Below are positions 1,802-16,585 of a stretch of 36,395 bases of DNA, in pieces (position 1 is the stretch's first letter; the number at the start of each line of letters is the position of its first letter). The stretch comes from an uncultured Candidatus Saccharibacteria bacterium (GTDB lineage: Bacteria; Patescibacteriota; Minisyncoccia; JAHIHE01; JAGLIN01). The notes under the pieces are model-generated. The model was not told where the DNA came from. It saw only the letters and a program-made list of their open reading frames with translations, and did not search any database. The position numbers and the translations under genes were made by a program. The stretch covers positions 1-36,395 of the forward strand of contig CAZKLR010000001.1 in NCBI GenBank assembly GCA_964553695.1, given 5' to 3'.

Positions 1802-1937
1802 TTATTTTACCAAGGTAGGGGTTTATTTTCTCCTCCAGGTAATGAAAAGTATGGACTTATCACTTACAATTGACGACGAGCCTCCAGATACTTGTTTTTG
1901 GAAGGAAATCAACAAATGTTTATATAAACTTCGAAAA

Positions 1938-1977
1938 GAAGACTGAATTTTTATTTAGCCTTCTTTTTTGTTTTTTT
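1938..1977 (+). terminator. terminator-like hairpin inside the 5' leader of the ATP-grasp operon
   Basis: GAAGACTGA (1938-1946) pairs with TTAGCCTTC (1955-1963): 8 pairs including one G-U wobble, plus 1 mismatch. It is followed by TTTTTTGTTTTTTT. The stop codon TGA (1944-1946) of a 34-codon upstream ORF (1842-1946) lies in the 5' arm. Confidence 0.4.
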
Positions 1978-1998
1978 AAGATATTTTTAAGTTATATT

Positions 1999-4479
1999 AT
2001 GAAAAAGACAACAAAAAAAGTTACAAAATTAAAAGAAAAGATTGCCAGCAGGGTATTTTCTCGAAATATAAAAATTGAAGGGAGAACGCTTCTTTTGGTT
2101 AATACCGGATCAATTCGCAAGCGCTTTGTTTTGCAAAGGCTGAAAAAGTTAGGAATCAAATTAGTGGTACTCAATTGCGAACGCAATTGGGCGGAGCCAT
2201 ATGTGGATGAATGGATAATCGCCGATACTTCGCGTCATGCCGAGGCTTTGCGGGCGGTACAGGCGTTTATAAATAATCATCCGGAACGTAAAATCGAGGG
2301 TGTGTTTACCTTCTATGAAGATGACGTATTACTGACTTCCAAGATTGTAGACAAATTTGGATTTATAGGAATTCCTTATGCCGTGGCATCAAACGCGCGC
2401 AACAAAGATCTTTTTCGGAATTTTTGCGAGGAGAATGATATTTTATCTCCTTGGCATCGGAGAATTGAGTCTAAAAAGGACTTGGATTTTGTCCGGGAAA
2501 ACTTTACCTTCCCTGTTGTTATTAAGCCGGCTTACGGTTCTTCAAGTGCCTTTGTAGTAAAAGTTGAAATACCGGAGAATTTGGATGAAGAATTTGAATA
2601 TGTTAAAACTTCACTTTCGGAAACTGTGGAATCGGCGCTGGCGGACGGAAGGCAGATTATGATAGAAGAATATATTGATGGAAGCGAGGTAGACGTTGAT
2701 GTGCTGGTGCAAAACGGGATCGTTAAATTTTATTCCATTTCTGACAATAGTGCGACCCGCGAACCATTTTTTATTGAAACCTATCGGTTGACGCCCTCTA
2801 ATTTGCCGGACGATGATCAAGAAAATATTATTGCAACGGTGGAAGAGGTGCTGGAAAAAATGGGAGTGCGTGATGGATGTATTCATTTTGAGGCCAAACT
2901 CACTAAGCGGGGTACAGTGCCGATTGAGGCAAATTTGCGGATGGGGGGAGATGAAATGTATTCAAGCGTGAAAAAGGTTTGGGGTGTGGATTTGATTGAA
3001 GGTGCGGTCAAGATTGCTTTGGGCATATATATTCCTAAACTAAAAATAGAAGAACCCAAACAGTGTATAATGGCTAAAACTTTTCTTGCGGATCATTCCG
3101 GAGTTATAGTGCAGCTGGACATAGATCCGGAGTTGGAAGAGAAAGAACATATTGAAGAAGTGAAATTCTTCAAGAAAGTTGGAGATACCGTAATGGCGCC
3201 TCCGGAAGGGTATGAATATTTGGGGTGGATGACAGTTTCGGGGGATAATTCGGCTGAAGCGCAGGATAATATGGAAGAAGCGGAGAAGCTTATAGAATAC
3301 GAAGTGGCAAGATTTCATTCCGCTTCGTCGATTGGAAAGACGTTGAGAAAAGACCATTGTTCTTCTTCGTTTTTTAAGACCGAAGCTGCAAAGAAACGTG
3401 AGAAGATAGAAAAAATACAAAAGATGTCAATAAAGGATCAGCGGAATTTGCACATTGGAATAGTCTGTAATCTTTATGACAAGGATGGAGATGCAACTTT
3501 GGAAAAAGAACTGACTGTGATAGGGGTTAATATTCAGAATGCTTTGAAAGAGCGGGGATACAAAGTTAGCTTTTTCGATTTTAACGACGTTGAAAAGGCG
3601 TTTAATGATTTGAAAAATAGTGACGTGGATTTGGTGTTCAATGTTTGCGAGAGAATCAATAATTCCAGTCTTTTGGAGCCGCATGTCGCTTCGCTCTTGG
3701 ATGTCCTGGAAATTCCATATACCGGCTCCAACCCTTTTACTTTAAGTCTTTGCATTGATAAAATTCGCGTGAAAAAGCTTTTGAGTTATCACAAGATTCC
3801 GACTCCGGAATGGGATTATGTTTATTCTATGGATGACAACGTCAGAGATGACCTTAAATATCCTTTAATTGTCAAACCTGCCAATACGGATAATTCCATC
3901 GGTATCACAAATAATTCTGTCGTAACCAATGAAGAGCAGCTCAAGAAACAGTTGGAGTATGTAGTTAAGGAAATGGGAAGGCCGGCGCTTATCGAAGAGT
4001 ATATCGAAGGTGACGAATACGATGTTTCGATTATAGGAAGCGAGGAGGAAGATTTGCGTGTTTTACCGCTTTCTCGTTCTGTGTTTGATAAAATGCCTGA
4101 AGGCTATTGGCACATTTATCCTTTTGAATCGAAATATGGAGAAGAGGAGGTTTATAAAAGATATATATCCGTGCAGAGACCGCCAAAGAACATAAGCAAA
4201 AAATTGGAAGCGGTTATAAGCGAGATTGCCTTGGATACTTATAACATTTTGGATTGCCACGATTATGGAAGGGTGGAAATTAGAGTGGATAAAAATGGAA
4301 ATCCTTATGTTTTGGAGCTTAACCCCAATCCTACCATCAATTTGACATCATGTGTGCCTTCAGTGGCCAAACTGACGGGAATGGATTATGGCGATTTCTT
4401 GGAGGAAATTATCAGAATGGCGATAAAACGTTATAAGAACCGGCCGCCTTACTATCATTTACAGGCTAATTTAATTTAA
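1999..4479 (+). CDS. fused double ATP-grasp ligase (N-terminal amino-acid-ligase-like ATP-grasp plus C-terminal D-Ala-D-Ala-ligase-like module)
   Basis: The ORF track starts at TTG 1870, but the first 43 codons look like leader sequence, so I place the start at ATG 1999 (MKKTTKK). First module motifs: FPVVIKPAYGSSSAFVVKV, IMIEEYIDGSEVDVDVLV, IHFEAKLT..PIEANLRMGG. Second module, from about nt 3448: LHIGIVCN, LEIPYTGSN, DKIRVKKLL, YPLIVKPANTDNSIGI, ALIEEYIEGDEYDVSIIG, YGRVEIRVDKNGNPYVLELNPNP. The second set is typical of the Ddl family. Confidence 0.75.
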   Translation: MKKTTKKVTKLKEKIASRVFSRNIKIEGRTLLLVNTGSIRKRFVLQRLKKLGIKLVVLNCERNWAEPYVDEWIIADTSRHAEALRAVQAFINNHPERKIEGVFTFYEDDVLLTSKIVDKFGFIGIPYAVASNARNKDLFRNFCEENDILSPWHRRIESKKDLDFVRENFTFPVVIKPAYGSSSAFVVKVEIPENLDEEFEYVKTSLSETVESALADGRQIMIEEYIDGSEVDVDVLVQNGIVKFYSISDNSATREPFFIETYRLTPSNLPDDDQENIIATVEEVLEKMGVRDGCIHFEAKLTKRGTVPIEANLRMGGDEMYSSVKKVWGVDLIEGAVKIALGIYIPKLKIEEPKQCIMAKTFLADHSGVIVQLDIDPELEEKEHIEEVKFFKKVGDTVMAPPEGYEYLGWMTVSGDNSAEAQDNMEEAEKLIEYEVARFHSASSIGKTLRKDHCSSSFFKTEAAKKREKIEKIQKMSIKDQRNLHIGIVCNLYDKDGDATLEKELTVIGVNIQNALKERGYKVSFFDFNDVEKAFNDLKNSDVDLVFNVCERINNSSLLEPHVASLLDVLEIPYTGSNPFTLSLCIDKIRVKKLLSYHKIPTPEWDYVYSMDDNVRDDLKYPLIVKPANTDNSIGITNNSVVTNEEQLKKQLEYVVKEMGRPALIEEYIEGDEYDVSIIGSEEEDLRVLPLSRSVFDKMPEGYWHIYPFESKYGEEEVYKRYISVQRPPKNISKKLEAVISEIALDTYNILDCHDYGRVEIRVDKNGNPYVLELNPNPTINLTSCVPSVAKLTGMDYGDFLEEIIRMAIKRYKNRPPYYHLQANLI

Positions 4480-4491
4480 TAAGTAAAATAT

Positions 4492-5376
4492 ATGTTTGCT
4501 ATCAGGGTCGTTACTGAATTGGAGGAGGCCCGCAAAGTTTGGAATCTTTTGAGTCCTAAACAGAATATTTATGAGGACTGGGATTTTCGTTTTGTGTTTT
4601 ACAAGTATTTTAATTATCCGCTGCGGTTTTATGTTGGAGAAGAAAATGGGGAAATAATCGGACTGCTTGCTTTGCAGGAAAATACCAATGTCGAATGTCT
4701 GGAGTTTTTTGGCGGAAGTTTTATGGAAGACAATCATACTTTGATAAAGTCTGGTTTTGAAAAATATATCCCGGAATTCTACGAAGCCATTAAAGAAAGA
4801 GCTAAATTGGAAGATATTATATACGATAACGAATTTGTTCCTATGGATTTTCTGGAAAACAAATATGTAATAGATCTAAGGGGATTGAATAACATCGAAG
4901 ATTATCTTAAAAAAACCTTTAGTTCAAAGACTCGTTCGAAATTGCGCAAAAAGATAAAACGAATAGAAGCTCTAAAATTTGTTGTTGTTGATAATCGATA
5001 TGCGGATATAGATGCTTTAATGCAATTTAATCGAAAAAATTTTGGTGTGGAATCATCTTTTAACAAGCCTCATCGTCAGCAGATTTATCATGATCTAGCG
5101 GGTAGTAGTTTTAAAGTAGTGATGATTTCGGCTGAAATTGACGAAAAATTAGAGGGTGTGTCTTTTGCAATCAAGTTCGAAAATACTTTTGTCAGTTTAA
5201 ATGCAGGCGTGAATAAAACGGATTTTGAAGATTTGGGGAATGTTATGTTGCTCAAGCGAATAGAGAAAGCAATTAATTTGGGTTGTAACGTTTATGATGC
5301 TGGATTAAACGATTTGGGGTGGAAAAAACAATGGCATCTAAAGCAAATTCCACAATATAAGTTCTACTATGAGTAA
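4492..5376 (+). CDS. GNAT-fold acyltransferase, FemAB/BioF2-like (Acetyltransf_6) family
   Basis: 294-aa ORF starting 12 nt after the ATP-grasp gene. The C-terminal part (GVSFAIKFENTFVSLNAGVN..LGNVMLLKRIEKAINLGCNVYDAGLNDLGWKKQW) resembles the FemAB-like/CelD-like GNAT domain, which ends in G..x.YK..W. Confidence 0.55.
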   Translation: MFAIRVVTELEEARKVWNLLSPKQNIYEDWDFRFVFYKYFNYPLRFYVGEENGEIIGLLALQENTNVECLEFFGGSFMEDNHTLIKSGFEKYIPEFYEAIKERAKLEDIIYDNEFVPMDFLENKYVIDLRGLNNIEDYLKKTFSSKTRSKLRKKIKRIEALKFVVVDNRYADIDALMQFNRKNFGVESSFNKPHRQQIYHDLAGSSFKVVMISAEIDEKLEGVSFAIKFENTFVSLNAGVNKTDFEDLGNVMLLKRIEKAINLGCNVYDAGLNDLGWKKQWHLKQIPQYKFYYE

Positions 5377-5422
5377 AAACTAATACGTTTTAAAAAGGAG
5401 GGCAGTGGGTATAAAAATGTAG

Positions 5423-5450
5423 TTGGCTTAATAAAGAATAATGTTATAAT
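5423..5450 (+). promoter_or_regulatory. sigma70-like promoter
   Basis: TTGGCT (5423-5428), 16-nt spacer, TATAAT (5445-5450), with a TGT extended -10 element. Confidence 0.4.
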
Positions 5451-5487
5451 AAATCTATAAGATAACATTTATAATTTTAAGTCAGAT

Positions 5488-6384
5488 ATGAGCGAACTTT
5501 TTATTTTGCCGTTTGATCATCGCGGTTCTTTTCAGGAAAAAATGTTTGGGATTCTGGGGGAACCAACAGCAGATGAGAGGGAAAAAATCAAATTCTTTAA
5601 GGAAATAATTTATAACGGATTTAAAATTGCAATCGAATCGGGGAAGGTTCCCAAGGAAGGCGGAGCTATTTTGGTAGACGAAGAATTTGGAGATAAAATT
5701 ATTCGAGATGCAAAGCAGAACGGCTATAAAGTTTCTATTTGTTGCGAAAAAAGCGGCCAGGAAGAGTTTGATTTTGAATTTGGGGAAAATTTCAAGGAGC
5801 ATATCGAGAAATATCGTCCGGAATATGTGAAGGCTTTGATAAGATATAATCCGGACGGAGATCAGGATTTAAATGAAAGGCAAACTGAGAAGTTGAAGGT
5901 TTTGACTGATTATTGTCATGAAAATGGCTATAAGCTTATGCTGGAGCCTTTAGTTCCGCCGACAGAAAGACAGTTAGAAATCCTCGAGGGCGATAAAGAA
6001 GCCTATGATCATGAAATGAGACCCCAATTAATGGAGTTGATGATTGAAGAACTTCAAGACGGAGGAGTCGAGCCGGATATTTGGAAAATAGAGGGGCTGG
6101 AAGAAGAAGATGACTATAAAATGCTAGTTGAACAAGTGCAAACGCAAGGAAGAAAATCTAATATTATTATTTTGGGCAGGCATGCCGAGGAGAATCAAGT
6201 TGAAAAATGGCTGAAAATTGGGGCGAAAGTGCCAGGAGTGGTCGGATTTGCTGTCGGCCGAACGATTTTTTGGGATGCGCTTTTGGAATATAAGTCGGGA
6301 AAAATTACAGCCGATGACGCAGCTAAGGCGATTGCGGAGAGATTTGAGCATTTTTATAAGGTTTTTAAAGAGGGAAACAACTAA
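5488..6384 (+). CDS. DUF2090 / LacD-like class I aldolase-fold (beta/alpha)8 protein
   Basis: 298-aa ORF. The N-terminus MSELFILPFDHRGSF and overall layout resemble the IolC C-terminal DUF2090 / 2-deoxy-5-keto-gluconate-6-P aldolase-like family. Confidence 0.55.
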   Translation: MSELFILPFDHRGSFQEKMFGILGEPTADEREKIKFFKEIIYNGFKIAIESGKVPKEGGAILVDEEFGDKIIRDAKQNGYKVSICCEKSGQEEFDFEFGENFKEHIEKYRPEYVKALIRYNPDGDQDLNERQTEKLKVLTDYCHENGYKLMLEPLVPPTERQLEILEGDKEAYDHEMRPQLMELMIEELQDGGVEPDIWKIEGLEEEDDYKMLVEQVQTQGRKSNIIILGRHAEENQVEKWLKIGAKVPGVVGFAVGRTIFWDALLEYKSGKITADDAAKAIAERFEHFYKVFKEGNN

Positions 6385-11801: not shown

Positions 11802-12968
11802 ATGAAATTTTCTCAGAGTGCTTTAGGTATACAGGAATCGTTTTTAAACAAGTGGGATTCTTCCATAAAACTTAGAAAGGCTGCAGGTGAAGACATTCTG
11901 CAGTTCAATTTGGGCCAGCCGGATTTTGCCTGTCCGGATTTTGTCAAAAAAATTATTGAAGAAGTAAACCAAAAAGATGGAAATAATTTTTATAATCATA
12001 CGGCAGGAATCGAAGGCGCTCGTAAGGCGATTGTTAAATTTCAAAAAGAGGTTTTTAATTCTGAATATAGCAAGGACGAGGTTGTTATTACAAATGGAGC
12101 GAAAGAGGCGATTTTCTTGGCTTTTGCTGCTCTGCTAAATCCTCAGGATGAGGTTATTGCAATTGCGCCTCACTGGCCGACTTATATTGAAGCTGTTAAA
12201 TTTTTAGGAGGCAAGCCAATAGTTGTGGATGCCGGCAAGGATTTTCATTTGAATATTGAGGCTATAAAAAATGCAATCGGAGAAAAAACCAGGGCAATTG
12301 TGATTAATAGCCCCAATAATCCAAGCGGAACTATTTATGGCGAGGAAGAATTTTCAAAAATAGCCGAATTGGCCGTCCAAAATGATTTGGTTGTGGTTTC
12401 GGATGAAGTTTACGGTTTGACCATTTTTGATGGTAAAAAACATATTTCCATTGCCGATTTTCCCGGTATGAGAGAGAGAACAGTCTTGATTGACGGTTTT
12501 TCTAAAACACTCTCTATGACCGGTTACAGGCTTGGATATGCTTTGGCTTCTCGTGAAATCATCAGTAACATGGTGAAAGTAAAAAGCAATATCAATGGGA
12601 ATACAAATTCCTTCTTTCAGATGGTTTTGGAAGAAGCGATCTTAAATCATTTCGATGAGTTTACAGCTTTCGTTGATTTCTCAAGGGAAAAGTATCTCGA
12701 GAGAAGAGATTTTCTATGTGAAAAATTGGCAGAAATGGGAATTGAGTTTGCAAGGCCAGATGGAACTTTTTATGTTTTTGCCAGGATTCCGGAAAAAGTG
12801 GGAAAAAAGTCTCAAGAATTTGCGGAATATTTATTAGAGCAGACAGGAGTGGCGGTAGCGCCGGGAATATTTTTTGGAAAGAATTATGATAATTATTTCC
12901 GCATTTCTTTCGGCACGTCTATGGAAGATATAAAGAAAGGGATAGAAAGGATGAGAAAAATTTTATAG
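11802..12968 (+). CDS. pyridoxal-phosphate-dependent aminotransferase, class I/II (AspC-like; possibly aromatic/aspartate)
   Basis: 388 aa. Motifs: ITNGAKEAIFLAF, INSPNNPSGTIY, SDEVY, and the PLP-lysine motif GFSKTLSMTGYRLGY, then the RISF tail. Confidence 0.85.
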   Translation: MKFSQSALGIQESFLNKWDSSIKLRKAAGEDILQFNLGQPDFACPDFVKKIIEEVNQKDGNNFYNHTAGIEGARKAIVKFQKEVFNSEYSKDEVVITNGAKEAIFLAFAALLNPQDEVIAIAPHWPTYIEAVKFLGGKPIVVDAGKDFHLNIEAIKNAIGEKTRAIVINSPNNPSGTIYGEEEFSKIAELAVQNDLVVVSDEVYGLTIFDGKKHISIADFPGMRERTVLIDGFSKTLSMTGYRLGYALASREIISNMVKVKSNINGNTNSFFQMVLEEAILNHFDEFTAFVDFSREKYLERRDFLCEKLAEMGIEFARPDGTFYVFARIPEKVGKKSQEFAEYLLEQTGVAVAPGIFFGKNYDNYFRISFGTSMEDIKKGIERMRKIL

Positions 12969-13015
12969 CTTTATAAGGGGTGAATTGCCTTTTATCTTCG
13001 AAATAGTTTAGGCTA

Positions 13016-13055
13016 AAGGTCGGATTCTTCAACGCTTGAATCTGACCTTCTATTT
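13016..13055 (+). terminator. rho-independent terminator after the aminotransferase gene
   Basis: 12-bp stem AAGGTCGGATTC (13016-13027) / GAATCTGACCTT (13038-13049) with one G-U pair, followed by a weak T tract CTATTT. Confidence 0.5.
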
Positions 13056-13081
13056 GACAAACTTTTTGAAATGACTATAAT
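13054..13081 (+). promoter_or_regulatory. consensus sigma70 promoter of leader element A
   Basis: Exact TTGACA (13054-13059), 16-nt spacer, exact TATAAT (13076-13081). Confidence 0.65.
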
Positions 13082-13102
13082 ATCTTTATATTAAGCGAAA
13101 TC

Positions 13103-13165
13103 ATGAGCCACAACATAAGCAACAAATTCTATTTCTTTTATTTTTTTAGCCATCACTTGAGATAG
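13103..13165 (+). CDS. Phe/Tyr-rich leader peptide A (MSHNISNKFYFFYFFSHHLR)
   Basis: 20-codon ORF. Codons 9-15 are TTC TAT TTC TTT TAT TTT TTT. A paralogous peptide occurs at 14477-14530. The stop codon is embedded in the antiterminator strand. No clear SD. Confidence 0.5.
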   Translation: MSHNISNKFYFFYFFSHHLR

Positions 13166-13197
13166 GTCGCTTTTGCCGTAGCTTATAAAATGCGAAA

Positions 13198-13225
13198 CAG
13201 CCCATCTCAAGAGGGCTGATTTTTT
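13198..13225 (+). terminator. attenuator terminator of leader A
   Basis: CAGCCC (13198-13203) / GGGCTG (13213-13218), loop ATCTCAAGA, then ATTTTTT. The segment CCCATCTCAAG (13201-13211) is complementary to CTTGAGATAGG (13156-13166). Confidence 0.6.
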
Positions 13226-13370
13226 ATGTGCTTAATTTCGAGTTTTGATTTATAAAAATAAAAGCTCAAAAGTAAGCATAAGATTTCAACTTTACATCGT
13301 TTAAAGCTTACTGGTATTGTTCGTTAAAAAGAAAAATATAAAACAAAAATAAAATAGGGAACTGATAGAT

Positions 13371-13940
13371 ATGGAAAAAAATAAATATGGACAAGGCAGA
13401 ATGGTTATTTATATTGGTGAAAATCTACAACCTCATGTTATTAGATATTTTCTTGAGGGATTGGCAATGAAGGCAAACGGAGGAGGGATAATTTCTCCTG
13501 TTTCATTTACATTGTTAGATGCTTCTGGAAGAACATTGGAGGCTAGAGGATCTGTAGAGAAAATAAAAGAGATAGTAGACATCATATCTAATTCCATTTT
13601 TCTTGAAGACAGGATTTGTCTTTTTGGAGTTAAATCAGATAAAGCTATCCATTATTTCTCTTTTGCGGCTGATTACTTTAATAAGCGCACTGGTTCCGTG
13701 GGGTTCTGCAAAGACTATTTCCCCGGTTTTATAAAGATAAGAAAAGGTGCTACTGCTCTAGAAAAAGTAATGAGCGCATTTCGAGGGATTATTTTTGACC
13801 CTTTAGAAGTTATAGAAATAGACAAAAAGGGAAAAATAGTTTTATTACAACAGGAAATTGAAGAAAAGGAACTTACTAAAAAAAGGCCGATTGATAAATT
13901 TCAAGATGTGGCAAAAGGATTAATTTCTCAGGAGGTTTAA
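13371..13940 (+). CDS. hypothetical protein (189 aa), first gene of module A
   Basis: ORF with coding-like composition. It is tightly followed by the next gene. I recognise no motif. Confidence 0.55.
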   Translation: MEKNKYGQGRMVIYIGENLQPHVIRYFLEGLAMKANGGGIISPVSFTLLDASGRTLEARGSVEKIKEIVDIISNSIFLEDRICLFGVKSDKAIHYFSFAADYFNKRTGSVGFCKDYFPGFIKIRKGATALEKVMSAFRGIIFDPLEVIEIDKKGKIVLLQQEIEEKELTKKRPIDKFQDVAKGLISQEV

Positions 13941-13943
13941 ATA

Positions 13944-14387
13944 ATGAGCGAAATTCCGAAGCCTATTAGTTATTTTAATGATGTCTTTAGTCTTGTTAGT
14001 GAGATTCAACAGAAGCATAGTATTGCGAAAAAATCACAGGGAGCTAAAAAGGATAAATATAAAAAATGGGCCACAAAGCTATCATTTATTCTAGAAAGAA
14101 AAATAGAAGCAACAGAAAAACTAGGAATGGAGATGGCACATGTTAGGGCCATTCTTGTTAAAGCCAATAGAACTAAGAGTTGCGGTAATCTAGAATTATT
14201 TTCAGACTTAATTCAGATGGCTATAAATATAGCAAAAAAGACAAAACTATCAGAACAAATATTACTAAGGTGTTCAAGCGAGGATATTCTTGCTCTTCTG
14301 AAAGAAAATCCAGAAAGAGTGATAGTATTTAAGGCGGGGGAACTGATGAAAATAAAAATTAAGGAGGTGAAAAGCAATGAATTTTAA
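13944..14387 (+). CDS. hypothetical protein (147 aa), second gene of module A
   Basis: Strong SD AGGAGG lies 8 nt upstream of ATG 13944. The C-terminal about 60 aa are weakly similar to the 95-aa product of 14732-15019. Confidence 0.6.
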   Translation: MSEIPKPISYFNDVFSLVSEIQQKHSIAKKSQGAKKDKYKKWATKLSFILERKIEATEKLGMEMAHVRAILVKANRTKSCGNLELFSDLIQMAINIAKKTKLSEQILLRCSSEDILALLKENPERVIVFKAGELMKIKIKEVKSNEF

Positions 14388-14388
14388 C

Positions 14389-14422
14389 GGACATAGGGGA
14401 ATAATCCTCCATGTCCTATTTT
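14389..14422 (+). terminator. rho-independent terminator ending module A
   Basis: GGACAT (14389-14394) / ATGTCC (14411-14416), with a possible inner extension AGGGG/CCTCC, followed by TATTTT. Confidence 0.5.
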
Positions 14423-14423
14423 A

Positions 14424-14451
14424 TTGACAAGGTGTGATATTTTGTTATAAT
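14424..14451 (+). promoter_or_regulatory. consensus sigma70 promoter of leader element B
   Basis: Exact TTGACA (14424-14429), 16-nt spacer, exact TATAAT (14446-14451). Confidence 0.65.
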
Positions 14452-14476
14452 TTTTTTGATGTTTTAGATTATTATT

Positions 14477-14530
14477 ATGAACCACAATACAAACAACCAA
14501 TTCTTCTTTTTCTTTTTTAGCCAGCTCTAG
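14477..14530 (+). CDS. Phe-rich leader peptide B (MNHNTNNQFFFFFFSQL)
   Basis: 17-codon ORF. Codons 9-14 are TTC TTC TTT TTC TTT TTT. It is alignable with leader A at both peptide and nucleotide level. Confidence 0.5.
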   Translation: MNHNTNNQFFFFFFSQL

Positions 14531-14562
14531 GAGATAGGTCGTTTTTGTTGAAACTTTAAATG

Positions 14563-14591
14563 AATGGCCCATCTCAAGAGGCTGTTTTTTT
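14563..14591 (+). terminator. attenuator terminator of leader B
   Basis: AATGGCC (14563-14569) / GGCTGTT (14580-14586), 7 bp including two G-U pairs, loop CATCTCAAGA, then a T-run to 14591. It is weaker than copy A. The G-U pairs are valid only on the + strand. Confidence 0.5.
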
Positions 14592-14731
14592 ACGTTTCGG
14601 ATTCAGCTCTTAGAACTTTTAGAAAATTCCAGGAGGTAAATCTGAAATGTCGGTTTATCATTTTGTTCGTTTAAAAAACTACAAAAATAAGATTTATAAA
14701 AATATAAATAGAATTTACAGGTGAAACAAAT

Positions 14732-15019
14732 ATGCAAACTCAATCTTTGCAGAATACGGGTGTTGGAAAAGAGGAATGCTTAAAAAAAATAAAAAAGTTA
14801 CTTCAAGTAACAAAAGAGGCACAAGAAAAAAATCTTGTAGAAGTTTTTTATCGCTCCTTAAGTTTCGCAATTTATTACATGAAGGAGCTGAAGGTATGTG
14901 ATATTTTTCTTAATTCTGATCCTAAAGATTTTTGTGCTTTGTGCGGAGAAGAAGCAATAAATTTGGTAGTTTTTTCCGAAGAAGACAGTCAAATAAAACT
15001 GTGCATCAAAAAAGAATAA
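14732..15019 (+). CDS. hypothetical protein (95 aa), module B
   Basis: SD AGGTGA lies 7 nt upstream of the ATG. It is weakly similar to the C-terminal part of the 147-aa protein (..D..AL..E.....VVF.......IK..). Confidence 0.55.
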   Translation: MQTQSLQNTGVGKEECLKKIKKLLQVTKEAQEKNLVEVFYRSLSFAIYYMKELKVCDIFLNSDPKDFCALCGEEAINLVVFSEEDSQIKLCIKKE

Positions 15020-15028
15020 AAATAGTCT

Positions 15029-15080
15029 AAAAAGACATGGTTTGCAAAAAATGCAAATGGCCATGTCTTTTTCTTTTTTT
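15029..15080. terminator. bidirectional terminator between module B and pheA
   Basis: AAGACATGG/CCATGTCTT plus TTTGCA/TGCAAA helices around an AAAAA loop. An A-run lies upstream and TTTTTCTTTTTTT lies downstream. Confidence 0.7.
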
Positions 15081-15088
15081 GTACGATT

Positions 15089-15655
15089 TTATTTTTCCAC
15101 TGCCAAAAAACTGGTGAAATTGAATTTTAGGTCTTGTACTCCTTTTTCCAATACTTCCAGTCCATAAAGCTCAGCACAGCTCTCGGGAGCGAGGACGGCG
15201 GTACTATTTGGCAAGATTCCTTCGGAAAGGTCTTTGGCGGCTTTGGCGGTGTCGTCGCGCTGTTCAATGGCGGCGGATGGCCAGTTTCTTTTGATATACA
15301 TCTTGCATTGTTTGATCGCTTGGTCGTGAGAGGCAATGGTCTCAATGTTTTCTTTTTTGATTCCGGGTTTGACTAATAGGCAATGAATTACGGGAATCTC
15401 GAAAAGCTCCCGGATGTTAAATATATAGCGGCTCATCGCATATACGCTTTCGATAACTATGCCTCCGTTGGAGTTTTCGATGGGGAAAACACCCATATCT
15501 ATTTTTTTATTTTCCAGAGCATTAAGAACATTCTCTACGGAGATCAAATATTCAAGTTTGTAATTTTCAATTTTTTTGTTGCGGCAGTATTCCCTTGCGG
15601 CTTGTTCGGAAAAACTTCCGATTGCGCCGGAGACGCCGATTATTTTTTCTTGCAT
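15089..15655 (-). CDS. pheA: prephenate dehydratase, catalytic PDT domain only (no ACT domain)
   Basis: 188 aa. Motifs: IGVSGAIGSFSEQAAREY, FPIENSNGGIVIESV, IASHDQAIKQC. The length is too short for the usual C-terminal ACT regulatory domain. Confidence 0.8.
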   Translation of the reverse strand: MQEKIIGVSGAIGSFSEQAAREYCRNKKIENYKLEYLISVENVLNALENKKIDMGVFPIENSNGGIVIESVYAMSRYIFNIRELFEIPVIHCLLVKPGIKKENIETIASHDQAIKQCKMYIKRNWPSAAIEQRDDTAKAAKDLSEGILPNSTAVLAPESCAELYGLEVLEKGVQDLKFNFTSFLAVEK

Positions 15656-16410
15656 ATCTTCTTATCTAGTTTATTAAGTTCTTTCAGAAATTTATTTCTG
15701 GTTTTTGCGGCATAAGGATTCAAGGTTTGCATATCAAGGAAAAGCTGCTCGGGATCATCTTTGACTTCCAAAATGATGTCTTTGAGTCGTTTGGCCGAAG
15801 GTGTGGTGAAAGCAAAGCCTTCAAGAGGTATGGTTTGGGCGGCTGCTCTTGAAAAGAAATGAGTCAGTGATTGTGTGTAGGCCATTATTTCGTCATGTTT
15901 TTTCGCCGATACTTCTTTTATATCAAGTCCCATATGCTTGAAAATTGATTTTATTTCTTGGTAACTTTTCTTTTTTATTCTTTCAGGGCATAGGACAATT
16001 TGAAGATCTTTGATTCCTTTTTTTCCGCTTTGCGGACCGAAAAGCGGGTGAGTACCAAGAATCTGCGCGTCTTTCGGGAGTATTTTTTTCATTTCTTTCA
16101 AAGGAAAAACTTTTACCGAACAGACATCAAAAACTATACAGTTTTTTTTGATTTTGCTGCGGATATCATTTAATACGCTTGTAATCTCTGAAATAGGCAT
16201 AGAGAGCATTATGATGTCTTGCTGGCAAACTTCTTCCATTGAAGAATAAGTGACCCCCAGCCTTTTTGCCGTTTCACTTTTATTGCTTTTGCTGGTAATA
16301 TAAATTTCCGAGAAAAAAGGTTTAAGATGCGGAATAAAAAACTCAGCAAATTGTCCTATTCCGATGATGCCTAAAGTTTTTTTATTGCCTTTTGTTGTAT
16401 TATTTGTCAT
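15640..16410 (-). CDS. tyrA: prephenate/arogenate dehydrogenase
   Basis: 256 aa. N-terminal Rossmann motif LGIIGIGQFAEFF, then DVCSVK and GTHPLFGP motifs. It overlaps the pheA start by 16 nt. Confidence 0.75.
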   Translation of the reverse strand: MTNNTTKGNKKTLGIIGIGQFAEFFIPHLKPFFSEIYITSKSNKSETAKRLGVTYSSMEEVCQQDIIMLSMPISEITSVLNDIRSKIKKNCIVFDVCSVKVFPLKEMKKILPKDAQILGTHPLFGPQSGKKGIKDLQIVLCPERIKKKSYQEIKSIFKHMGLDIKEVSAKKHDEIMAYTQSLTHFFSRAAAQTIPLEGFAFTTPSAKRLKDIILEVKDDPEQLFLDMQTLNPYAAKTRNKFLKELNKLDKKICKKK

Positions 16411-16585
16411 TCTTTTGATTCTTAAAGAAGAAAATTGCCATTATTAGCCAGAAGCCGCAAATAATAATCGTTATAATTAGGTCTGCCGGTTTGGAAAAGT
16501 CTGGCGGGGTGGAAATAAATAAAGCCAAGAGCAGTATAAACCAAATTGCTTCTAGAAGATAATATGACTTTGATATTTTTTTCAT
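16400..16585 (-). CDS. small hypothetical 2-TM membrane protein
   Basis: 61-aa ORF with two hydrophobic helices. It overlaps the tyrA start by 11 nt. Confidence 0.35.
   Translation of the reverse strand: MKKISKSYYLLEAIWFILLLALFISTPPDFSKPADLIITIIICGFWLIMAIFFFKNQKNDK

Follow-up and report, generated by a model that had tools for sequence, protein, structure and literature searches.

Why should a Paceibacteria-like CPR bacterium carry a consensus promoter, a very short open reading frame with six consecutive phenylalanine codons and a terminator hairpin ahead of a small orphan gene? The question is raised by positions 14424-14591 of the window, by which we mean the whole 36,395-nucleotide stretch of DNA analysed. 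An earlier note had interpreted this segment, referred to here as copy B, as a second, diverged copy of a Phe leader/attenuator acting on the + strand, and this interpretation is supported by homologues, by a three-way covariation and by a ribosome-position model. We estimate a probability of roughly 0.85 that copy B is a ribosome-mediated (leader-peptide) transcription attenuator sensing charged tRNA-Phe. Copy B and the segments immediately downstream of it comprise the following features.

14424-14451, + strand: promoter, TTGACA (14424-14429), N16 and TG-TATAAT (14446-14451), 12/12 in a consensus scan
14477-14530, + strand: leader ORF of 17 codons, MNHNTNNQFFFFFFSQL*
14477-14497, + strand: segment S0 (AUG and the next 18 nt of the ORF, 21 nt in all)
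14501-14518, + strand: Phe run, codons 9-14, TTC TTC TTT TTC TTT TTT
14522-14544, + strand: antiterminator 5' strand, CAGCUCUAGGAGAUAGGUCGUUU, consisting of the last codons, the stop and the invariant GAGAUAGG
14562-14591, + strand: intrinsic terminator, stem GAAUGGCCC / GGCUGUUU within 14562-14587, loop AUCUCAA, U7 at 14585-14591
14597-14645, + strand: post-terminator hairpin, UUCGGAUUCAGCUC...GGAGGUAAAUCUGA, containing AGGAGG
14663-14678, + strand: motif shared with copy A, TTGTTCGTTTAAAAAA

Two structures compete for the same RNA. In the folds, the antiterminator 5' strand pairs with 14562-14584, and the loop and 3' half of the terminator therefore double as the antiterminator 3' strand; within it CTCTAGGAGATAGG pairs with CCCATCTCAAGAG and excludes the terminator, and the partner of GAGAUAGG is CCCAUCUC. 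The antiterminator pairs in the fold run from C46-G108 to U52-A101 and from G55-C99 to U59-A95, and those of the terminator from G86-U111 to C94-G102. A simple terminator scan misses the terminators of both copies, which we attribute to their loops of 9-10 nt probably exceeding the limit of the scan; loops in the leader terminators are 8-10 nt, longer than those of efficient intrinsic terminators. There is no Shine-Dalgarno sequence in the ~19-nt AU-rich 5' UTR before the copy B leader ATG, and most homologous copies also lack one at this position while their downstream genes have one, such that initiation at the leader would depend on the unstructured AU-rich 5' UTR.

The related unit lies upstream, and has these parts.

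13054-13225, + strand: copy A unit, with promoter 13054-13081, ORF 13103-13165 (MSHNISNKFYFFYFFSHHLR*) and T-run 13220-13225
13198-13218, + strand: copy A terminator, CAGCCC/GGGCUG
13227-13280, + strand: type A post-terminator hairpin, starting at the invariant ATG 13226-13228

A formal alignment, which the earlier note had called for, gives 98 identities in 127 columns and a local score of 101. Dinucleotide shuffles (n = 1000) reach 20.3 +/- 2.9 (maximum 31) and the best of 845 other pieces of the window reaches 30, showing that copies A and B are true paralogues (z ~28). Nearly everything that had been read directly from the letters is borne out by the analysis: the exact promoter with its TG before the -10 hexamer, the ORF with six Phe codons, the competition between antiterminator and terminator (seen in the folds and kept in homologues), the gap of 32 nt between stop and terminator in both copies (13166-13197 in A and 14531-14562 in B), and the G-U pairs of the copy B terminator, U89-G108 and G90-U107, taken as indicative of the + strand. 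The same is true of the distance to the next start codon, which is 145 nt from the T-run in copy A and 140 nt in copy B, and of the motif TTGTTCGTT(T)AAAAA, which recurs at 13317-13330 in copy A, reads GYTCRTT(N)AAAAA across relatives, and in their copies of either type, A or B, lies about equally far from the start codon. A Phe run common to the two copies is only partly correct, because copy B has a pure Phe run whereas that of copy A is FYFFYFF, a mixture of Phe and Tyr, and the type A run includes a Trp codon in some relatives.

The aminotransferase gene upstream of copy A served as the anchor for finding related loci (L008-L024). The search for further homologues conserving the run recovered 15 full-length leaders and one that is cut by a contig end, all in relatives named Ca. 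Paceibacterota, and the sequences are few and closely related. Eight loci (L008, L011, L013, L015 and L021-L024) have a leader downstream of orthologous aminotransferases with 56-94% identity. A metagenome pattern that specifies no Phe codon at all gave five matches in four loci, every one with an aromatic run just upstream and none of them a chance match. A scan of genome contigs with GAGATAGG-N20-50-CCCATCTCAAGAG gave two hits only, both fortuitous and located within coding regions of MAGs that are not related. Each homologous leader retains the ATG and its frame, the run of aromatic codons, the position of the stop, and both the terminator and the antiterminator. Of 13 homologues inspected, 12 have a TTGACA-16/17-TATAAT/TACAAT promoter with unchanged spacing to the ATG.

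The variation within the ORF is informative. All 89 run codons in 14 leaders encode Phe, Tyr or Trp, with interchange of TTC with TTT and of TAT with TAC, and the run is kept in the five type B and nine type A full-length ORFs examined; indels in these 14 ORFs are multiples of three. Among type B copies the ATG, frame, run and stop are kept in 5/5 and the Phe run is identical in 5/5, but codons 2-6 vary freely. No third-position bias was found in codons 2-6, as one would expect of a leader peptide but not of a functional one. In L008 the same scaffold carries runs of Asn codons, favouring codon sensing over a functional peptide. GAGAUAGG shows no variation, also in copies where it lies outside the ORF, such as those of type B. 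Taken at the level of sequence, the ORF appears to behave in a manner typical of a leader peptide.

Both alternative structures are maintained across the homologues. The terminator has 95.8% of cells paired, compared with 21-52% when slid, and three of its six pairs are changed on both sides; the antiterminator has 92.7% of cells paired among 16 distinct sequences (29-48% when slid), although its covariation is modest, as 35 of 500 shuffles reach the score and the alignment was fitted to the antiterminator structure. A three-way change is seen in L013B and L018B, in which CAG→CAA in the ORF, a synonymous change, accompanies GGCC→GACC in the 5' half and GGCU→GGUU in the 3' half of the terminator. 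There is also a third structure, in which S0 pairs with the segment just 3' of GAGAUAGG (S3, approximately 14538-14558) in a helix of 21 bp that sequesters the AUG. This S0:S3 helix has 73.8% of cells paired, compared with 32-49% slid, nine of the 21 pairs differ on both sides, and none of these measures is attained by any of 500 shuffles; the alignment was not fitted to the helix. The signal is strongest in type A, and in copy B the helix appears in folds for codons 15-17. The central small hairpin that had been described for both copies is therefore better viewed as mainly one strand of this helix with the first 21 nt of the ORF.

The hairpin that follows the terminator is conserved as well. 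RNAalifold finds 22 pairs, 12 with compensatory changes, in eight type A copies, and 21 pairs, four with compensatory changes, in four type B copies. Permissive Rfam searches list hairpin-like microRNA matches on this stem. A 25-codon uORF with AGGAGG at 14647-14724 had been put forward as an additional control site and was rejected, as its ATG is present only in the window and in the nearest relative and reads ATA in L011 and L013, and the AGGAGG is a strand of the conserved hairpin.

Constrained folding was used to model how the position of a ribosome affects the choice of structure, with an assumed footprint of -15 to +12 nt and equilibrium folding. All 13 homologues form the terminator when the ribosome is placed at the stop codon, and 11/13 form the antiterminator when it stalls at the last aromatic codon; the two exceptions, winA and L019A, form the antiterminator with a stall at the first run codon. 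In copy B the antiterminator has a probability of 0.87 or more for every A-site position on codons 1-14, and the terminator one of 0.97 or more from codon 15 on, placing the modelled switch point exactly after the last Phe codon (codon 14). The antiterminator and terminator of copy B are thus predicted by these folds to be mutually exclusive, with the choice set by ribosome position. In minimum-energy folds of the free RNA, the Phe-codon run pairs with the purine-rich GAGAUAGG.

These observations suggest a mechanism in which the strong promoter, presumably constitutive, starts a transcript of ~135 nt and the 17-codon leader is, we infer, translated by a ribosome. With ample Phe-tRNA this ribosome would reach the stop and its footprint would cover CAGCUCUAG-GAGAUAGG; the terminator (GGCC.../...GGCU, then U7) would then fold, and transcription would end ahead of the 95-aa gene. 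A shortage of Phe-tRNA would instead stall the ribosome in the UUC/UUU run and leave the GAGAUAGG arm free to pair with the terminator loop and 3' half, thereby preventing termination and allowing the polymerase to read into the cargo. Once a ribosome has moved on, the AUG and the rest of the first 21 nt of the ORF would pair 3' of GAGAUAGG behind it, and the resulting S0:S3 helix may block re-initiation and lock the terminated state. Copy A would operate by the same mechanism with mixed Phe and Tyr codons, and in some relatives a Trp codon.

Other explanations for the element must be weighed against this one. The same two RNA structures could be switched by a protein, a tRNA or a small molecule with the ORF being incidental, as might be suspected from the leader ATG without a Shine-Dalgarno sequence, from the invariance of GAGAUAGG even in non-coding type B, which could mark a binding site, and from the extra conserved hairpins and shared motif downstream. 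However, the ATG, frame and stop are kept in 14/14 full-length ORFs with indels only in multiples of three, the run is always aromatic with synonymous interchange, Asn codons are found on the L008 scaffold, and the modelled switch falls where the run ends. Furthermore, the window contains no match to Rfam at gathering scores, there is no riboswitch or T-box match at a significant level, and T-box and riboswitch families are absent even among permissive Rfam matches for 12950-14800; we regard a switch of this type as improbable. The same evidence counts against a gene for a trans-acting small RNA of ~130 nt, followed by a gene with its own promoter. A perfect promoter with a terminator after ~130 nt, the 140 nt separating the T-run from the next gene, and the occurrence of two to three paralogues in a genome, as is known from small RNA families, are what such a gene would present; but the element is always directly upstream of a gene or operon in the same orientation, though the cargo differs between genomes, and the promoter scan listed nothing in the copy B spacer and only a 9/12 match in that of copy A, making this proposal less probable still.

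The ORF itself could also be the functional product, a hydrophobic micropeptide such as a type I toxin or a membrane peptide, given that the frame is short and conserved and that six or seven aromatic residues form a hydrophobic core in it. This seems very unlikely: its 17-20 residues are too few to span a membrane, the residues on either side of the run change freely with no third-position bias, a polar Asn run takes the place of the aromatic one in paralogues built on this scaffold, there is no sign of an antisense or antitoxin feature, and the covariation with the downstream RNA segments would be left unexplained. Least credible of all is that the real feature is the 62-aa ORF on the minus strand (14384-14572), which is open in the window and was annotated by a gene caller on one contig. 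It is not conserved, its start region being destroyed by a 1-nt indel in copy B of the closest relative, L008; the G-U pairs of the terminator would be A-C mismatches on the minus strand, and conservation follows the + strand ORF and structures. Copy B therefore appears to be a real, conserved switch of the classical Phe-sensing leader-peptide kind.

What such an attenuator would control is best considered from the genes that surround it.

11802-12968, + strand: class I/II aminotransferase, immediately upstream of copy A (Pfam 2.3e-68)
13371-14387, + strand: copy A cargo, orphans of 189 aa (13371-13940) and 147 aa (13944-14387)
14732-15019, + strand: copy B cargo gene, with Shine-Dalgarno sequence AGGTGA, for a 95-aa member of a lineage-restricted protein family
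15030-15079, no strand assigned: bidirectional terminator hairpin, AAAAGACATGG ... CCATGTCTTTT, read from the sequence, between the cargo and the convergent prephenate dehydratase
15089-15655, - strand: prephenate dehydratase, convergent, catalytic domain only and no ACT domain (Pfam PDT 3e-44)
15640-16410, - strand: prephenate dehydrogenase (Pfam PDH_N 1.6e-21)

In the window, the attenuator units are thus flanked by an aminotransferase gene on one side and by the genes for prephenate dehydratase and dehydrogenase on the other, and the locus adjoins the latter two in most relatives, although L022 has a leader with neither gene nearby. In L015 and L021 the gene directly after a type A leader encodes a paralogous class I/II aminotransferase. 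The match of the dehydratase to the NCBIfam PDT model covers positions 5-183 of 284. Antisense control of this gene by read-through is unlikely, because the bidirectional terminator separates the two genes.

The cargo proteins themselves are enigmatic. Beyond their own lineage the 189-, 147- and 95-aa proteins are essentially without homologues, searches of Pfam, NCBIfam and PADLOC gave nothing significant, and a PDB sequence profile search was not significant. Comparison with L008 gives dN/dS values of 0.12 for the 95-aa protein, on few substitutions, and of 0.30 and 0.31 for the 189- and 147-aa proteins respectively. The 95-aa protein forms only three clusters in 5.8 billion proteins, and its AlphaFold2 model (pLDDT 85) has no fold match in the PDB. 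The model of the 189-aa protein is unreliable (pLDDT 41), and its beta-alpha-beta-beta-alpha-beta pattern is only a hint of what may be an ACT-like or ferredoxin-like fold. No link of the cargo proteins to Phe metabolism could be demonstrated.

The proposed logic is a familiar one. In the pheM-pheST, trpL, hisL, leuL, thrL and ilv leaders of Proteobacteria the position of the ribosome selects a 2:3 antiterminator or a 3:4 terminator, with a protector pairing when there is no stall, and copy B would follow the same logic. It differs in that its 'protector' is a 21-bp helix between the ORF start and a segment inside the antiterminator, and in that its cargo includes no recognisable biosynthetic or tRNA-synthetase gene. 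The closest parallel is pheL-pheA (RF01859) of E. coli and other Gammaproteobacteria, which likewise has a leader ORF with a Phe run, alternative hairpins and a U-run, and in which a stall at Phe codons favours read-through. All 53 known pheL genes are from the gamma subdivision (Gurvich et al. 2011, PMC3082878), whereas the host of copy B is a Paceibacteria-like CPR bacterium. Nor is the arrangement the same, since pheL sits directly upstream of pheA but copy B precedes a 95-aa orphan, and the nearby prephenate dehydratase gene, unlike pheA, is on the opposite strand beyond the bidirectional terminator; the leader ATG without a Shine-Dalgarno sequence and the additional AUG-sequestering helix are further departures. 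The RF01859 Phe_leader model detects nothing at its gathering score of 55, and with permissive settings matches copy A at 19.9 bits (E = 2.9) and copy B not at all, and the copy A and B leaders are thus a new sequence family below the Rfam threshold.

Independent, lineage-specific families of leaders have been found by comparative genomics before, as here, including leader-peptide attenuators predicted in Actinobacteria (Seliverstov et al. 2005, PMC1262725) and a His leader before hisS/hisZ paralogues in bacilli (Naville and Gautheret 2010, PMC2965389). The family of copies A and B differs from these in belonging to another phylum, in having aromatic regulatory codons, and in having within-locus paralogues with different runs (Phe; Phe/Tyr/Trp; and Asn in L008). 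Our literature search found no earlier report of amino-acid-sensing leader-peptide attenuators in Ca. Paceibacterota. The mechanism is a textbook one and offers limited surprise to specialists in attenuation; what is unusual is its CPR host, and a cargo that is a small orphan protein instead of a known biosynthetic enzyme.

A broader reading, which we advance tentatively and at less than even odds, is that these are the first CPR attenuators of the amino-acid-sensing leader-peptide type (in Ca. Paceibacterota, now Minisyncoccota), that they form a 'codon-swappable' family with Phe, Phe/Tyr/Trp and Asn runs on one RNA scaffold, and that their fast-evolving orphan cargo proteins are unrecognised components of amino acid acquisition in reduced genomes. 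If so, some cargo proteins could regulate the ACT-less prephenate dehydratase in place of the missing domain, or help the cell to scavenge from a host. The leaders in any case may serve as labels, marking the 95-, 147- and 189-aa orphans as likely to be induced by aromatic amino acid starvation and providing a concrete, testable way into their function, and the presence of Phe, mixed aromatic and Asn runs on the same scaffold suggests that the sensor can be re-targeted by codon swap. Regulation in the CPR is almost unstudied, and most of these bacteria are not culturable. Classical attenuation needs a ribosome close behind the RNA polymerase, and a conserved, covarying family of this kind would therefore provide sequence-level evidence for both transcription-translation coupling and amino-acid-responsive regulation in CPR bacteria.

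Copy B, the predicted Phe leader and attenuator at 14424-14591 (+ strand), and its paralogue copy A at 13054-13225 (+ strand) can be aligned from the -35 box through the T-run, beyond which the likeness fades. Their local alignment scores 101, compared with 20.3 +/- 2.9 for 1000 dinucleotide shuffles and a best score of 30 among 845 other pieces of the window, so the likeness claimed in the earlier note exceeds what is expected by chance for AT-rich DNA. Several shared details described there also hold: a stop-to-terminator distance of 32 nt in both copies, spacers of 140 nt (copy B) and 145 nt (copy A) to the next start codon, the common motif TTGTTCGTT(T)AAAAA, and G-U pairs in the copy B terminator. 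Terminator loops are 8-10 nt long, and in most copies the leader ATG is not preceded by a Shine-Dalgarno sequence.

Features of the two copies and the genes downstream (cargo)
Within 14424-14591, +: copy B promoter, an exact TTGACA-16-TATAAT with TG preceding the -10 box (consensus scan)
Between promoter and leader ORF, +: copy B 5' UTR, about 19 nt, AU-rich
14477-14530, +: copy B leader ORF, MNHNTNNQFFFFFFSQL* (sequence reading)
14562-14587, +: copy B terminator, a G+C-containing stem with a seven-U run at its end (fold)
14732-15019, +: copy B cargo, a 95-aa gene ending at a bidirectional terminator that faces the prephenate dehydratase gene
13054-13081, +: copy A promoter
13103-13165, +: copy A leader ORF, MSHNISNKFYFFYFFSHHLR*
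13198-13218, +: copy A terminator, with its T-run at 13220-13225
After copy A: cargo genes of 189 aa and 147 aa

With the aminotransferase as anchor, contigs of relatives at 56-94% identity were fetched. The loci share a gene order of ECF sigma factor, two unknown genes, aminotransferase, leader island, convergent prephenate dehydratase and dehydrogenase genes, and topA. Both leader types (type A resembling copy A, type B resembling copy B) are present in loci L008, L011 and L013, and type A leaders occur in L015 (GCA_028691985.1) and L021-L024. A covariance model built from 13 copies gave 14 strong matches (103-133 bits) at ten loci, together with three diverged copies, a truncated copy in L020 and another strong copy in L024. 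Scanning JGI metagenomes with a pattern that specified AGCC, GRGATAGGT, CCYRTCKCARG and TTT alone returned five matches at four loci, each with an aromatic codon run just 5' of it, and 0 chance matches; a pattern scan of a genome collection returned two chance matches only. All sequences derive from metagenome assemblies. A diverged scaffold copy in L023 (9847-9959, +) has a good promoter and terminator and has lost its aromatic run, its ORF now reading MRAISPPSI*. Downstream of it is a 137-aa gene whose relative follows leader B in L011, and the copy may be a decayed or re-purposed attenuator. A minus-strand ORF was rejected as a feature, its frame being broken in L008.

The copy B ORF reads ATG AAC CAC AAT ACA AAC AAC CAA TTC TTC TTT TTC TTT TTT AGC CAG CTC TAG. 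Type B peptides follow the pattern M-x4-[NSI]-N-Q-FFFFFF-SQL*, and type A peptides M-x4-S-N-[KQW]-(5-7 aromatic residues)-S-[HR]-x-[LM]-[RG]*. The ATG, reading frame and stop position are conserved in all 14 full-length ORFs examined, whose lengths differ by multiples of three, and every run codon (89/89) specifies Phe, Tyr or Trp, with TTC/TTT, TAT/TAC and Phe/Tyr swaps within the runs. Codons 2-6 vary freely, and third-position bias is absent there. This combination argues for a signature of regulatory codons and not of a functional peptide. L008 contains an insert, missing in the window, with two tandem diverged copies (15045-15148 and 15175-15287, +) that keep the scaffold (…HLR*, GAGAUAGG and terminator) yet carry Asn codon runs in place of aromatic ones (MQYTNNNNLNFPNHLR and MIFSKSNNNNNNFFRHHLR), which points to codon sensing. 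The first has its own TTGACA-16-TATAAT promoter, and downstream of the pair are genes for a 373-aa orphan protein and a peptidase of the M28 family.

Three structures were scored in a covariance-model alignment of 16 distinct rows. The 5' strand of the antiterminator runs from AGCC / CAGCUCU through GAGAUAGG, and its 3' strand is the terminator loop plus 3' half.

Paired cells, slid controls and pairs changed on both sides
Terminator: 95.8% paired; slid controls 21-52%; 3 of 6 pairs changed
Antiterminator: 92.7% paired; slid controls 29-48%; 3 of 20 pairs changed
ORF nt 1-21 with the segment after GAGAUAGG: 73.8% paired; slid controls 32-49%; 9 of 21 pairs changed

The terminator covariation score is attained by 5 of 500 shuffles. 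That of the antiterminator is modest, being attained by 35 of 500, and the alignment had been fitted to this structure. For the helix formed by ORF nt 1-21, which takes in the leader AUG and was not used in building the alignment, none of 500 shuffles attains any of five measures. The homologues are related to one another and small in number, so that few events underlie the covariation. No single finding is more telling than a coordinated triple change that distinguishes the type B leaders of L013 and L018 (L013B and L018B) from the window: a synonymous CAG to CAA in the ORF, GGCC to GACC in the 5' half of the terminator, and GGCU to GGUU in its 3' half. One 3' nucleotide therefore has a Watson-Crick partner in both alternative structures.

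Ribosome positions were modelled at equilibrium with an assumed footprint of -15 to +12 nt around the A-site codon, and such folding models show consistency, not kinetics. A ribosome placed on the stop codon leaves the terminator as the minimum-energy structure in 13/13 homologues; a stall at the last aromatic codon gives the antiterminator in 11/13, and copy A and L019A form it instead with a stall at the first run codon. In the copy B ensemble the probability of the antiterminator never drops below 0.87 while the A site is anywhere within codons 1-14, and that of the terminator stays at or above 0.97 once the A site has reached codon 15, up to the stop, which places the predicted switch exactly past the last Phe codon. 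For copy A the model puts the switch between aromatic codons three and four, with the 5' end of its ORF re-pairing with the central segment behind the ribosome.

We propose that copy B and its family work like the pheL-pheA, pheM-pheST and trpL attenuators. The constitutive promoter would fire and the leader would presumably be translated. With enough Phe-tRNA, a ribosome at the stop codon would cover CAGCUCUAG-GAGAUAGG, allowing the terminator to fold and the transcript to end at 14585-14591. When Phe-tRNA is scarce, the ribosome would pause within the UUC/UUU run; GAGAUAGG would then pair with CCCAUCUC, and CAGCUCU with AGA-GGCUG, precluding the terminator and letting transcription proceed through the 95-aa gene. 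Once the first ribosome has gone by, pairing of ORF nt 1-21 with the central segment may lock the off state and would also hide the AUG.

Further candidate elements lie between terminator and cargo. The 25-codon uORF with AGGAGG proposed at 14647-14724 is not conserved, its ATG reading ATA in L011 and L013, and AGGAGG was rejected as a uORF site, being one strand of a conserved post-terminator hairpin. In type B this hairpin (14597-14645) has 21 pairs, 4 of them compensatory; its better supported type A counterpart in the same place (13227-13280) has 22, with 12 compensatory. Part of the 3' strand of these hairpins, which lie directly 3' of the U-run, can also pair further downstream (AGTAAGC/GCTTACT in type A, TAAATC/GATTTA in type B), which suggests a second switch. 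An ATG at 13226-13228, right behind the T-run and invariant in 8/8 aligned type A copies, begins another short ORF (MCL..SF...) whose length varies greatly and which in L011 continues in frame into the cargo gene; this may be a genuine uORF, or the ATG may simply form the base of the conserved hairpin. The motif GYTCRTT(N)AAAAA (13317-13330 and 14663-14678) recurs in relatives with both leader types, some 45-55 nt ahead of the start codon of the cargo.

The cargo genes vary among relatives and evolve fast. Comparison with L008 gives dN/dS values of 0.12 (95 aa), 0.30 (189 aa) and 0.31 (147 aa), from few substitutions, which argue that all three are real genes. The 95-aa protein has a confident AlphaFold2 model (pLDDT 85). 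Searches of Pfam, NCBIfam and PADLOC, and PDB fold and sequence searches, returned no match for the cargo proteins, and almost no homologues were found among billions of proteins searched. A link to aromatic amino-acid supply is plausible, because the type A leaders of L015 and L021 are followed first by a gene for another class I/II aminotransferase, and because the adjoining prephenate dehydratase (15089-15655, -; 188 aa) matches positions 5-183 of a 284-position model and thus has the catalytic domain only, lacking the C-terminal ACT regulatory domain. Relatives also have this short ACT-less form, but L022 has a leader with no prephenate dehydratase or dehydrogenase gene nearby. The 189-aa protein (13371-13940, +) and the 160-190-aa products of genes after type A leaders in relatives have the look of a tandem repeat of a beta-alpha-beta-beta-alpha-beta unit, in which the motif G-x-I-[SG]-P-[LV]-S-F recurs. 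This is reminiscent of ACT-like or ferredoxin-like domains, and is only a lead since the AlphaFold2 model is of low confidence.

The window is chromosomal, with ftsA, ftsZ, hisS, topA, dprA, pth, nrdD and a LytR-family gene, and has a G+C content of ~36%. The Paceibacterota/Minisyncoccota are part of the candidate phyla radiation (CPR). The best named relatives of the aminotransferase (11802-12968), at ~65% identity, are in MAGs called Candidatus Paceibacterota or Pacebacteria, and an orthologue of the 95-aa protein is annotated in such a MAG; NCBI taxonomy now places the name Candidatus Paceibacterota under phylum Minisyncoccota. Between topA and the prephenate dehydrogenase gene, and overlapping the start of the latter, is a small ORF of ~61 aa with a hydrophobic translation (about 16402-16585, -). 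A conserved three-gene cluster at 1870-6384 (+), syntenic in every fetched relative whose contig extends that far, encodes an 869-aa protein with two ATP-grasp / D-Ala-D-Ala-ligase-like modules, a GNAT-type acetyltransferase-like protein (Acetyltransf_6) and a DUF2090 protein.

Leader peptides were described in 2010 as known from no groups other than Proteobacteria and Actinobacteria, to which a case in Firmicutes was then added (PMC2965389; for leader peptides outside Proteobacteria see also PMC1262725). Unlike pheL, the copy B element is not upstream of pheA. We class the attenuator as a new sequence family within a known type, the ribosome-mediated leader-peptide attenuators, because it falls outside the Rfam Phe_leader family (19.9 bits for copy A, below the threshold of 55, and no match for copy B), because every one of the 53 pheL genes known comes from the gamma subdivision (PMC3082878), and because a full-text literature search found no paper joining leader peptide and attenuation with Patescibacteria or CPR. 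What makes it notable is its host phylum, its orphan cargo, a helix that would sequester the AUG, and paralogues whose codon runs differ.
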